DNA of 64,000 nucleotides from Eledone cirrhosa (taxonomy: Eukaryota): positions 341,310,001-341,374,000 of the forward strand of contig OZ024740.1 of the NCBI GenBank assembly GCA_964016885.1, written 5' to 3'. The notes under the pieces were generated by a model, which ran no database searches, was not told where the DNA came from, and worked only from the letters and a program-made list of their open reading frames with translations. Below, one piece after another: positions 5,929-37,444 of the stretch (positions are counted from its first letter, which is position 1; every line of letters begins with the position of its first letter). A program made the translations under genes and the position numbers.

Positions 5929-6776
5929 TAAATTATTGACGTATTGTTTTATTGATATTTTTTATCTGTTTGTCCCGAATCTTCCTTTATCGATTTTTTA
6001 TCGTATGGTTGATTGTAGACTTGTTCTATATGTGACGGTATTTTAACGATAGTTATAGCTCTGATTCATCTGAATTATTGAGCCCTCTGCCGCTCATTTC
6101 GAATCTTGTTTATCGTGAACTCGTGCGCCGATTTTTCGATACTCGATCTTTCTAATATATTTAGCTCTGGACATAGCTATCCACCAGTTAATTTTATTGC
6201 TCATTTTTTGTCGATTCTATTGAGTGATGAATAGCTTTTGTTTTATTTTAACATGTCTATTGAGCACTCTTATTCGATATGTGTATTTCCACATTCCCTC
6301 GAATTGTTTTCGCGGATATAGAGGTTATCTCCCTTGTCTAATGCCATGTGCGTTTTTCACTGGTAGTTAGCCCCTCTACCGCCATGAAAAAAGCTCGTTG
6401 AGAAAGTAAACTCCGTTCCGCTTACTCTAGTAGGCTTTTATATTTATATGTGAGCTGATAGAGTACAGTCTAAGGATTTACAGAAACCCATGAAGCTAGA
6501 TTTAACACCTGTCTAGTGGGTCCGGGTATGATTTTACATTCATTTAAATTATTGACGTATTGTTTTATTGATATTTTTTATCTGTTTGTCCCGAATCTTC
6601 CTTTATCGATTTTTTATCGTATGGTTGATTGTAGACTTGTTCTATATGTGACGGTATTTTAACGATAGTTATAGCTCTGATTCATCTGAATTATTGAGCC
6701 CTCTGCCGCTCATTTCGAATCTTGTTTATCGTGAACTCGTGCGCCGATTTTTCGATACTCGATCTTTCTAATATAT
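5929..6776. repeat. Partial tandem repeat, period 616 bp (232-bp direct repeats 5929-6160 and 6545-6776); Penelope pseudo-LTR-like layout
   Basis: Apparently identical 232-bp segments read directly; the second ends in (TA)n. Confidence 0.8.
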
Positions 6777-7218
6777 ATATATATATATATATATATTTAT
6801 ATATATATGTATATTTTTTAATATAAGGGATTGTTTCTTTGTTTTTATTCATTATTTTTATTAATTTATATATATATATATATATATATATATATATATA
6901 TATATATATATATATATTGAAACAAAATGAAAACGAAATTTCATCTCTCACTCTTAGTATGGCACTTACTTAAATGTAAGTATGCATGTATACGTACATA
7001 CATATATGTATACAGACGTACAGTAGCATGCACATATATATATATATATATATACATATATACATACATATGCATACAGGTACACATACATATATGCACG
7101 TATCAGTTTAGCGGCGCTAACGTCGCTTTGTTCGTTTGTAAACAAACTGAACAGCCTGAATTTATGCCATACGGTGTTAAGGCAACCACGTCACCTTTTT
7201 GTTCAACACTGACACAGG

Positions 7219-7263
7219 AACGATGTACTAGTTTCAAGCTTGTTAGCTATCATCAGCACCGTT
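7219..7263 (-). ncRNA. Minimal type I hammerhead ribozyme (array unit 1)
   Basis: Minus strand: AACGGUG CUGAUGA U-AGCU-AACA-AGCU-U GAAA CUAG UA^ CAUCGUU. 7-bp stem I, canonical core, palindromic stem III ACUAGU, GUA cleavage triplet. Confidence 0.85.
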
Positions 7264-7688
7264 TACCCATCTGCCAGATAGTTGAACGTTCGAAAGTATA
7301 TACTTTCCTTATGAAAATTAACGGCTGAGCAGCCTAATTTGCATATTGAGTGAGTTAAATCGGTCAGGCATACCGAAAACGATAAATTGAAACAAAATGA
7401 AAACGAAATTTCATCTCTCACTCTTAGTATGGCACTTACTTAAATGTAAGTATGCATGTATACGTACATACATATATGTATACAGACGTACAGTAGCATG
7501 CACATATATATATATATATATATACATATATACATACATATGCATACAGGTACACATACATATATGCACGTATCAGTTTAGCGGCGCTAACGTCGCTTTG
7601 TTCGTTTGTAAACAAACTGAACAGCCTGAATTTATGCCATACGGTGTTAAGGCAACCACGTCACCTTTTTGTTCAACACTGACACAGG

Positions 7689-7733
7689 AACGATGTACTA
7701 GTTTCAAGCTTGTTAGCTATCATCAGCACCGTT
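7689..7733 (-). ncRNA. Minimal type I hammerhead ribozyme (array unit 2)
   Basis: Identical to 7219-7263. Confidence 0.85.
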
Positions 7734-8158
7734 TACCCATCTGCCAGATAGTTGAACGTTCGAAAGTATATACTTTCCTTATGAAAATTAACGGCTGAGC
7801 AGCCTAATTTGCATATTGAGTGAGTTAAATCGGTCAGGCATACCGAAAACGATAAATTGAAACAAAATGAAAACGAAATTTCATCTCTCACTCTTAGTAT
7901 GGCACTTACTTAAATGTAAGTATGCATGTATACGTACATACATATATGTATACAGACGTACAGTAGCATGCACATATATATATATATATATATACATATA
8001 TACATACATATGCATACAGGTACACATACATATATGCACGTATCAGTTTAGCGGCGCTAACGTCGCTTTGTTCGTTTGTAAACAAACTGAACAGCCTGAA
8101 TTTATGCCATACGGTGTTAAGGCAACCACGTCACCTTTTTGTTCAACACTGACACAGG

Positions 8159-34916: not shown

Positions 34917-36528
34917 CATATATATATATATATATATATATATATATATATATATATATATATATATATATACATATATATATATACATATATATATATA
35001 CATATATATATACATATATATATATATATATATACATATATATATACATATATATATACATATATATATACATATGTATATACATATATATATACATATA
35101 TATATACATATATATATATATATATATACATATATATATACATATATATATACATATATATATACATATATATATACATATATATATATATATATATATA
35201 TATATATATATATATATATATATGTATGTATGTATGTATGTATGTATGTATATATATATACATATATATATATATATACATATATATATATATACATATA
35301 TATATATATATATATATATATACATACATATATATATATATATACATACATATATATATATATATATATACATACATATATATATATATATACATATATA
35401 TATATATATATACATATATATATATATATATATATATATACATACATATATATATATATATATATATATATATATGTATGTATATATATATATATATATG
35501 TATATATATATATATATATATATATATATGTATATACATATACATATATATATGTATATATATATATACATATATATAGATATATGTATATATATATACA
35601 TATATATATGTATATATATATACATATATATATATATATATATATACATATATATACATATATATATATATATATATATATATACATATATATATATATG
35701 TATATACATATACATATATATATATACATATATATATATATGTATATACATATACATATATATATATATATATGTATATACATATACATATATATATATA
35801 TATATACATATATATATATATATATGTATATATATATATATATATATGTATATATATATATATATATATATATATATATATATGTATATATATATATATA
35901 TATGTATATATATATATATATATATATGTATATATATATATATATATATATATATATATATATATGTATATATATATATATATATGTATATATATATATA
36001 TATGTATGTATATATATATATATATATATGTATGTATGTATATATATATATATATGTATGTATATATATATATATATATGTATGTATATATATATATATA
36101 TATATATGTATGTATGTATATATATATATATATGTATGTATATATATATATATATATATGTATATATATATATATATATATATGTATGTATATATATATA
36201 TATATATATAATGTATGTATATATATATATATATATATATATATATATATACATATATATATATATATATATATGTATGTATATATATATACAGATATAT
36301 ATATGTATGTATATATATATACATATATATATATGTATGTATATATATATATACATACATATATATATATATATATATATATATATGTATGTATATATAT
36401 GTACATATATATATATATGTATGTATATATATGTACATATATATATATATATATATATATATATATATATATGTATATATATATATATATATATATATAT
36501 ATATATATATATATATATATATATATAC
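34916..36528. repeat. 1.6-kb compound (TA)n tract (TACA-type then TATG-type)
   Basis: Read directly. Confidence 0.95.
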
Positions 36529-36766
36529 ACATTTAGAAACACACAGATACATGCGGACACACACATATATACATGAATGCATCCGCACCCAACTGTGAGT
36601 TAAGGGTGCCAACTTCACCGATGTTGCTCAATGAATGACTGGGACAGACCAATTCAGTTTGAACCAGACTGAACCAGTATCAGAGTTAAAAATACATTAT
36701 GAAGAGAGAAGAAACATTTAGATATAATTAGTAATAAAATGTATCATACCTAAACTGTTCCTAAAT

Positions 36767-36854
36767 TCCTCGACTACGTAGTTTCGTGGCATAAACAAAA
36801 ACAATATATCAAAGATATAGAGTCCTTGCGAGGTCTGCCGACTTATCAAGAGGA
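36767..36854 (-). ncRNA. Type I hammerhead ribozyme, U3-A8 core variant
   Basis: UCCUC UUGAUAA GU(C)GGCA...UGCCAC GAA ACUACGUAGU C^ GAGGA. 5-bp stem I, long stem II insert, palindromic stem III, GUC triplet. Confidence 0.85.
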
Positions 36855-37356
36855 TACCTCATTTTACTAGTCTCAAGAACGCGTCTACACGACGTGAGAA
36901 AGAATCCCAAAAGGCGGAGGGGGAGATAGTCACGCGATATAACGGTCGAGAAACAGAGCTAAGCCTCTTATAACCACGAAAAAATACCACGGAGGCGGAG
37001 GGGGTATTCATATCGAGGCCCGTAGAAGAGGTAGTGAAGAAGGCGAGAAGTATGAGTAATGGAAGCTTTCCAGTTGTCCCCACACTTCAAAGATTGCTCG
37101 ACCAGAGGGAGTTATTAATACATTTAGAAACACACAGATACATGCGGACACACACATATATACATGAATGCATCCGCACCCAACTGTGAGTTAAGGGTGC
37201 CAACTTCACCGATGTTGCTCAATGAATGACTGGGACAGACCAATTCAGTTTGAACCAGACTGAACCAGTATCAGAGTTAAAAATACATTATGAAGAGAGA
37301 AGAAACATTAGATATAATTAGTAATAAAATGTATCATACCTAAACTGTTCCTAAAT

Positions 37357-37444
37357 TCCTCGACTACGTAGTTTCGTGGCATAAACAAAAACAATATATC
37401 AAAGATATAGAGTCCTTGCGAGGTCTGCCGACTTATCAAGAGGA
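37357..37444 (-). ncRNA. Type I hammerhead ribozyme, U3-A8 variant (unit 2)
   Basis: Identical to 36767-36854. Confidence 0.85.

Follow-up and report, generated by a model that had tools for sequence, protein, structure and literature searches.

Penelope-like elements (PLEs) of the Hydra clade, as presented in the text of Craig et al. (2021, PMC8557442), carry one open reading frame (ORF) combining reverse transcriptase (RT) and GIY-YIG, with the DKT, RW(K/R), CxCX5C, CxxC and CxH motifs. They target (TA)n and bear a hammerhead ribozyme in the pseudo-LTR; their copies, which have a tail on one side, are tandem, partial-tandem and inverted. Metazoan non-LTR retrozymes are described (PMC7229834; 10.64898/2026.07.22.740005) as tandem repeats that code for no protein, each unit holding one type I hammerhead, with a GC content below 50%, and have been proposed to be non-autonomous Penelope derivatives. 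In the account of Poseidon_Ac (Frangieh et al. 2024, PMC11167929), the tail is set by two internal start points that lie downstream of the hammerhead, and the targets are AT-rich. The same report gives two internal start sites in vitro for a Penelope element, and states that insertion of the anole element in vitro requires no ribozyme cleavage, with no reads ending at the cleavage site. These arrangements of ORF, unit, target and tail, and the GC content below 50%, recur in the DNA described here.

The window is a stretch of 64,000 nucleotides from Eledone cirrhosa (contig OZ024740.1, positions 341,310,001 to 341,374,000), about 31 kb of which had been singled out in a preliminary description as a ribozyme-dense locus. 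We consider it highly probable that it holds independent insertions at ordinary density, namely Hydra-clade PLEs (families B, F and likely C) and retrozymes (families A, D and E), which Penelope enzymes likely copied into (TA)n. The locus itself adds little; what matters is what it exposes.

Hammerhead families and their host elements

A strict scanner applied to positions 6000-38000 returned nine hammerheads against a mean of 0.05 (maximum 2) in 60 dinucleotide shuffles, a count far above the shuffled control proposed in the preliminary description. Cores with G3-C8, A3-U8 and G4 were not enriched (window/shuffle counts of 0/0, 2/4 and 0/0), and a further scanner match at 25231-25414 was considered a false positive, being long, AT-rich and single. 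Rfam detected no hammerhead in the window, with 0 matches at the gathering score and microsatellite noise, without any hammerhead family, in the best 150 of the 281 entries of its E-value list. The type I core with three helices is present in canonical form in families A and C and with U3-A8 in B, D and E. Compensatory changes affect 8 of 13 predicted pairs of the C-like helix II (11 motifs) and 5 of 29 pairs of the E-like helix II, the latter from only three motifs. The minimum-energy fold is not a hammerhead in B and F, a competing hairpin being predicted in B to hide GAAA. Judged by sequence comparison, the hammerhead motifs are real and their self-cleavage is a prediction.

The family E insertion (5929..6770, plus strand) comprises a 616-bp unit and a 226-bp partial copy. 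Its type I hammerhead (6393..6527, plus) has its U3-A8 core at 6398, and both helix II and helix III are long; cleavage is predicted after 6522, and the motif coincides with the predicted minimum-energy fold (z -2.17). The candidate previously placed at 6455 had a misplaced core, and was dropped for the one at 6398. Family A (6912..8774, minus) consists of four 470-bp units with hammerheads at 7219..7263, 7689-7733, 8159-8203 and 8629-8673 (minus), featuring a CUGAUGA core, U-U at the base of helix II and a palindromic helix III. Family D (36529..37723, minus) consists of two units of 590/591 bp, whose hammerheads (36767..36854 and 37357-37444, minus) combine a U3-A8 core with a long helix II and a palindromic helix III.

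In all three families the tandem units are non-coding, every unit contains one type I hammerhead, and the copies are dispersed genome-wide; units of one array differ less than units of different arrays, by 1.5 versus 4.7 for E, 7 versus 34 for A, and 1.0 versus 1.7 for D. Protein matches occur at 0 of 20 family A loci; 5 of the 25 loci of D and 3 of the 25 of E have such matches, which may lie outside those elements. The families are likely to be non-coding tandem retrozymes, probably copied by Penelope enzymes. Head-to-tail arrays devoid of an ORF would also be expected if DNA recombination had spread ordinary satellites that carry the motifs by chance, an explanation to which we attach almost no probability: nine motifs against 0.05 in shuffles speak against chance, the arrays are short and dispersed, fixed at the 3' end, variable at the 5' end and with inverted arms, and this end pattern, together with the clean empty sites reported below, already contradicts it.

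Family B is represented by a 5'-truncated Hydra-clade PLE (11544..14671, minus), bounded by (TA)n and adjoining a Ty3/Gypsy pol fragment, with an inverted pseudo-LTR (11544-12373 and 13764-14594) and a 77-bp tail. The C-terminal part of its RT/GIY-YIG protein (aa 395-717) lies at 12794..13765 (minus) in two reading frames. Its hammerhead at 11559..11652 (minus) has a U3-A8 core, and an inverted copy at 14486..14579 (plus) carries U at A15.1. The latter had been listed as a good copy and is not one because GAAU in place of GAAA breaks A15.1-U16.1; it is likely inactive. The rest of that list, at 7219/7689/8159/8629, 11559, 17896, 29197, 29375 and 36767/37357, consists of type I hammerheads as reported.

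Elsewhere in the genome, full-length B forms head-to-tail units of 3531 bp. In one of them (L247) the hammerhead lies about 190 nt before the ATG of a 717-aa ORF in which DKT, RWR, CxCX5C, CxxC and CxH, and no CCHH, were read by eye. A single ORF with RT followed by a C-terminal GIY-YIG agrees with the Hydra-clade definition in the text of PMC8557442, as do, for the layout, the pseudo-LTR hammerhead, tandem and inverted copies, tail and (TA)n targets. A Pfam search of the 717-aa protein gave no match, and its Atlas neighbours are cnidarian and ctenophore hypothetical proteins. No hammerhead was found beside a second GIY-YIG fragment in the window (51908-52617).

Family F is represented by a short piece from the end of a second Hydra-type element (31190..31425, minus). 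Its hammerhead (31289..31339, minus) has the core CAGAAGA, with A at position 4 where the type I core has U, and the remaining core positions and helices are intact, including U-U at the base of helix II, a 5-bp helix III and a CUU cleavage triplet. Previously listed as degenerate, this core is instead family-wide: the 51-nt motif that contains it occurs in 11,704 exact copies, whereas a 28-nt motif was matched with a base other than A in 209 cases. In two loci (L250, L251) it lies about 160 nt before a B-related ORF, 49-55% identical to the B protein. Placed by motifs, layout and protein identity, B and F are ends of Hydra-clade PLEs.

Family C occurs as a subfamily fragment (17768..18020, minus; hammerhead 17896-17962), 82% identical to 29312-29566, and as a two-armed insertion (29147..29566) with hammerheads at 29197-29258 (minus) and 29375-29434 (plus) and arms ending at +55 and +137 relative to the cleavage site. 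Neither an ORF within 1.5 kb nor a protein match was found at 25 close copies, and C-like hammerheads precede or follow Hydra-type ORFs in three loci (L147, where the hammerhead comes first, L153 and L182). C resembles Hydra-clade ends and is likely one of them. No sequence-linked protein-coding partner was found for A, C, D or E in 20-25 loci each. First candidate counts (109 for A, 515 for F) lay far below the true copy number and were left out.

Density, orientation and recent movement

The same scanner, which missed the family E hammerhead and the 14486 copy, found 143 motifs in 91 insertions in a 1.17-Mb sample spread over the genome, an extrapolated total of about 2.6-5.4 x 10^5 hammerhead motifs. 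The probability of at least six insertions in 30 kb is 0.07 and of at least seven in 60 kb 0.23, both uncorrected for the choice of window, and the count of seven retains 25231-25414, a choice favouring the claim of a dense locus. The window is an ordinary sample of a hammerhead-rich genome. The reported minus-strand excess (nine of 11 copies) arose because tandem copies were counted repeatedly: five of six independently oriented insertions are minus (p 0.22), and the genome sample holds 72 minus and 71 plus motifs. The suggestion that a minus-strand transcript crossing the region could be cut repeatedly is not supported, strand bias being absent and no host exon having been recognised in the ten ORFs scanned.

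The (TA)n borders of the host segments and their tandem, partial-tandem and inverted layouts are as first described, and enrichment next to (TA)n holds genome-wide, with 81 of 91 sampled insertions lying no more than 300 bp from (TA)n, compared with 32% of random positions. RTE LINEs here likewise insert in (TA)n, which weighs against the preferred reading.

A second copy of the region, located at C1:342.06-342.13 Mb and representing either a duplication or the other haplotype, differs at 67 of 38,935 bases (0.17%; 99.8% identical). It lacks the E, A and D insertions, showing plain (TA)n runs as empty sites, and carries non-ribozyme insertions of its own. With filled and empty sites in copies 0.17% apart, E, A and D landed very recently, and recent movement of three retrozyme families is revealed. 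The earlier idea that autonomous PLEs and non-autonomous ribozyme repeats form an ecosystem and insert in (TA)n is supported by full-length B, by F before a related ORF, by the (TA)n enrichment and by the plain (TA)n empty sites.

A special hot spot, or a cluster of ribozymes with the function of cutting a minus-strand host transcript, would also produce three very young insertions within 31 kb of one copy, only five motifs in the flanking 120 kb, and over-dispersed counts per 10 kb (variance/mean 1.7). Such a hot spot or cluster is very improbable, given that at least three insertions occur in 10 of 117 sampled 10-kb stretches, that the 60-kb count is unexceptional, that strand bias is absent and that the second copy has acquired its own insertions; moreover, the elements are polymorphic between near-identical copies and therefore not conserved.

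Copy ends and the bulged hairpin

The 3' ends of copies fall at one or two fixed positions between 20 and 310 nt downstream of where cleavage is predicted (B +20/+100, F +23/+108, D +79/+242, C +55/+137, A +252/+309, E +254); from there the copies extend back across the hammerhead to a 5' point that varies, and many of them have a second, inverted arm. A bulged hairpin (RCUC...UH-GAGY) follows 11 of 12 ends within 16 nt in seven dissimilar families, against a null mean of 1.0 (maximum 7 in 100,000), the motif having been derived from the same ends used for this first test; its count is 12 against 0.12 in shuffles. A family outside the derivation (L275) has an end at +178 with a hairpin at +185, and only a partial match at its second end (+258).

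In the window, the hairpin lies in the B tail (14600..14623, plus), 6 nt past the short copy end; in C (29492..29516, plus), 8 nt past the short end; in D after the long end (+242; 37096..37112, minus) and after the short end (+79; 37217-37277); and in E after the fixed end in the tandem unit (+254; 6164..6225, plus). A second E hairpin (+152; 6674..6699, plus) is conserved in two E-like copies, and no copy end was seen before it: E ends use one of the two hairpins (12 ends, seven stretches, both L306 arms), and an end predicted near +146 was not borne out. Family A has fixed ends, with the hairpin at 0 of 2. In place of four unrelated families, the window contains six, five of which share the hairpin, and identity between the proteins of B and F is about 50%.

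The hairpin is likely a start signal for reverse transcription. The element protein would nick (TA)n and begin reverse transcription a few bases 5' of the hairpin in the RNA; D, E and C would parasitise Hydra enzymes by bearing it, and family A, which lacks it, is likely served by another Penelope partner. Because the hammerhead sits in the stretch copied first, even 200-bp stubs carry it, which accounts for the huge motif count. The template of multi-unit arrays could be a self-cleaved and religated circle, a step weakened by the anole result in vitro (PMC11167929), or else an uncleaved multimer.

The latter option belongs to an account, less probable yet deserving consideration, in which the elements and enzymes are the same, the hammerheads rarely cut, arrays derive from uncleaved tandem transcripts and A4 is a tolerated loss of function. 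The anole element is reported not to need cleavage in vitro (PMC11167929), and minimal Penelope hammerheads are reported to cut poorly (PMC4209133); every copy spans an intact cleavage junction, and F exceeded 11,000 copies despite its changed core. Against rare cutting, helices covary and cores are constant across subfamilies; the E motif appears in runs under other organism labels with differences, among the matches listed, at N7, at an extra base after A9 and in the loops; and A4 recurs as a fixed core in another family, with full helices. One run presumed to be RNA gave matches in short pieces only, a result that has no bearing on expression. We still prefer Penelope-copied insertions, and put forward tentatively, at somewhat under even chances, the fuller proposal that Hydra enzymes read the hairpin as their start, that unrelated non-coding ribozyme circles hijack these enzymes by bearing it, and that several hundred thousand hammerheads result, including a working U4-to-A core missed by standard searches.

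Comparison with described elements and ribozymes

Natural core variants described in PMC4209133 and PMC3088659 include, as here, U3-A8 covariation, a base inserted after A9, U10.1-U11.1 and a helix III that is palindromic; a viroid U4C is reported as well. Here U4-to-A is fixed in two large families, a change that does not appear in the passages of those two articles that were consulted. A search of article and supplement text found no U4-to-A core and, since 2021, no report combining a hairpin, a tail and a hammerhead in Hydra PLEs; the word 'ribozyme' is absent from PMC13282606. With the A4 core in two successful families, either the hammerhead consensus is wider or efficient cleavage is not needed for these elements to spread, a point on which the field is undecided.

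In comparison with the Hydra-clade PLEs as presented in PMC8557442, the unit here is longer (3.5 kb against generally less than 3 kb), as are the tails (80-165 nt against 30-40), and the U3-A8 and A4 cores, the long helices and the very high copy number set it apart; the shared hairpin goes unmentioned in the passages and supplement text of that article that were searched. The retrozyme units, of 470-616 bp, fall inside the range of 51-972 bp given by Li et al. (2026, 10.64898/2026.07.22.740005) and exceed the 170-400 nt stated by Cervera and de la Pena (2020, PMC7229834), and the U-U at the base of helix II recalls axolotl HHR_Amex2 as described in these two sources. At the level of DNA, the retrozymes here are tied to Hydra elements by Penelope-type fixed ends and the hairpin, without sequence homology. 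Poseidon_Ac is reported to start at an AC-rich stem-loop inside the ORF (PMC11167929), whereas the ends here precede, by 1-15 nt, a conserved hairpin with a bulge, which is located in the 5' untranslated region and common to families. Such a candidate RNA signal would explain both the Penelope tail and the recruitment of the Penelope enzyme by retrozymes, in a genome whose estimated 2.6-5.4 x 10^5 type I hammerheads exceed the 126,247 given for the axolotl in PMC7229834.

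Hammerhead motifs in the window and the genome

Six hammerhead families (A to F) are represented in the window. The structure scanner reported nine type I hammerheads, where 60 shuffles gave 0.05 on average: one of family E at 6393 (plus strand), four of family A at 7219, 7689, 8159 and 8629 (minus), two of family C at 29197 (minus) and 29375 (plus), and two of family D at 36767 and 37357 (minus). This control bears out the motifs as genuine. A relaxed scanner added 11559 (B), 17896 (C) and 31289 (F), and an Rfam search of the window reported zero hammerheads. The candidate at 6455 in the preliminary description does contain a hammerhead, a 135-nt motif of family E which is the minimum-energy fold, with its core located at 6398 instead; 14486, listed there as a good copy, has lost A15.1, and the supposedly degenerate 31289 carries a family-wide variant, the A4 core of family F (A at core position 4). 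Covariation across 11 C-like motifs affects 8 of the 13 predicted helix pairs; across three E-like motifs it affects 5 of 29. The family B motif (11559-11652) has a competing hairpin in which GAAA is concealed within a tetraloop; this may be an off state that protein relieves.

The same scanner was applied to 117 systematic 10-kb stretches (1,169,600 bases) of the 3.0 Gb genome, yielding 143 motifs in 91 insertions and about 30 sequence clusters, with 52 stretches positive; one shuffle of this sample, with four core patterns used, gave 3 motifs. Stratified estimation puts the genome-wide total at 3.9 x 10^5 motifs (bootstrap 2.6-5.4 x 10^5) in 2.4 x 10^5 insertions. Single families are very large, as exact counts of the 51-nt F motif (11,704) and the 22-nt D motif (5,987) bear out. 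The sample also happened to include a 310-bp hammerhead repeat arrayed in 11 units (L186:245-3387).

By this scanner the window holds 12 motifs in 7 insertions, which is ordinary for the genome: resampling gave P 0.23 for at least 7 insertions in 60 kb and P 0.07 for at least 6 in 30 kb. The observations of the preliminary description mostly stand, including the link with (TA)n, since 81 of the 91 sampled insertions have a run no more than 300 bp away, compared with 32% of random positions; its claim of a ribozyme-dense locus fails, and the minus-strand excess disappears in the genome sample (72 and 71 motifs per strand). SINE ends are less bound to (TA)n (14/31), and RTE ends were near it in 4 of 7 cases, too small a number.

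Filled and empty sites in a second copy of the window

The window (G000:C1:341310001-341374000) is filled with repeats, namely RTE and CR1-like LINEs, a Ty3/Gypsy fragment, long (TA)n runs and SINEs, whose tail appears cephalopod-like. A second copy of the whole window lies about 750 kb away (G000:C1:342061516-342128510), with 67 substitutions in 38,935 aligned bases (0.17% diverged), and is either a duplication or the other haplotype. The E, A and D insertions are missing from it, their flanks being joined there via plain (TA)n, and these filled and empty sites directly show the recent movement of E, A and D. The second copy has additional insertions of its own, among them an RTE LINE in (TA)n, and at least six insertion differences separate the two copies; they offer a natural series of occupied and unoccupied sites, unless one is an uncollapsed haplotype.

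Restricted to the second copy is an element of 428 bp (L125:8023-8450), inserted in (TA)n and bearing short inverted ends. In the window, an RTE LINE (30023-34915) carries a PHD finger in its 759-aa reverse transcriptase frame; beyond a (TA)n run stands its inverted 3' copy of 1.1 kb, with family F in between. Two palindromic repeats without a hammerhead occur at 17356-17750 (395 bp) and 41282-41738 (457 bp, made of SINE arms), and a satellite array of about 17 units of 370/394 bp (55768-62600) gave no hammerhead with the scanners.

Copy ends, a bulged hairpin and a variant core

Copy ends adjoining (TA)n cluster at fixed sites downstream of the predicted cleavage site: +20 (n=40) and +100 (n=39) for B, +23 (n=30) and +108 (n=33) for F, +79 (n=8) and +242 (n=15) for D, +55 (n=12) and +137 (n=9) for C, +252 (n=9) and +309 (n=13) for A, and +254 (n=12) for E; the loci were mostly top search matches, and young copies are consequently over-represented. 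A bulged hairpin, RCUC-stem-UH-GAGY, starts 1-15 nt past 11 of 12 copy ends in seven families (B to F and two further ones of Hydra type), random positions averaging 1.0, in a first test on the same ends from which the motif was derived. At the one end missed, F +108, the motif is present with a loop too short for the script's limits. E has two such hairpins, one alone being used in all copies seen, and family A has none. The tandem family L275 did not enter into the motif definition; the hairpin is at +185, just past one of its ends (+178), and the second end shows a partial match. The hairpin is a candidate signal shared among families, for which a literature search found no precedent; it goes beyond what was found in print and is ready for bench tests.

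The core of family F reads CAGAAGA, compared with the usual hammerhead CUGANGA, with the remaining core bases and all three helices in place. Only 209 matches have another base at position 4, spread over U, G and C, as would be expected of decay after insertion. L275 (2,982 first-look candidates), unrelated to F, also has an A4 core. Its hammerhead is the minimum-energy fold (z -2.53); of 19 motif copies printed, 14 fit the script's pattern, 3 have A4 with an altered neighbour and 2 end before the core. The L275 unit (about 500 bp; motif at L275:4366-4449, G000:C7:80004366-80004449) has a helix I of 8 bp, and its helix III consists of AAATTT-like repeats that vary in number. A4 cores numbered 14 in the genome sample and 2 in shuffles. 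PMC3088659 describes U4C as a viroid variant with reduced activity, and no text on a U4A core was found in the literature searched. A4, fixed in F and L275, is a candidate hammerhead core beyond what was found in print, ready for bench tests, and the L275 motif is a good substrate for an activity test. Three different C4 motifs (L166:7443-7567, L215:3885-3933, L285:641-755; 3 vs 0 in shuffles) share an identical palindromic helix III.

Relation to known elements

The B insertion of the window is truncated; the intact element has tandem units of 3531 bp, an ORF of 717 aa and, some 190 nt upstream of the ATG, one hammerhead, and its motifs agree with the Hydra clade as section 11 of PMC8557442 defines it. 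F corresponds to the end of another Hydra-type element. C-like hammerheads flank Hydra-type ORFs elsewhere in the genome, and no such ORF was seen within 1.5 kb of the 25 closest C copies. Hydra-type proteins were matched in 17 of the 117 sampled stretches. A third truncated Hydra-type element (51908-52640 and 53900-54740), split by an RTE/SINE insertion, has an AT-rich 3' region of decayed repeats of about 139 bp from the ORF end; a hammerhead was looked for in it and not found.

The copies all run across an intact cleavage junction, and their template was therefore either an uncleaved multimer or a circle formed by religation. Units of one array resemble each other more than they resemble units of other arrays, in keeping with both templates. 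A, D and E are dispersed non-coding tandem repeats (units of 470, 591 and 616 bp) in arrays of one to seven or more units, and correspond to retrozymes as the term is used in PMC7229834; by analogy with that source, circles seem the somewhat likelier template for these short elements.

The 5' ends of copies are variable, many with an inverted arm, and this layout of fixed ends and variable 5' ends is the pattern of the Penelope tail, for which PMC11167929 reports two internal start sites traced in vitro. Short stubs retain the hammerhead because it is among the first 20-310 nt to be copied. The elements of the window are further members of kinds already known.
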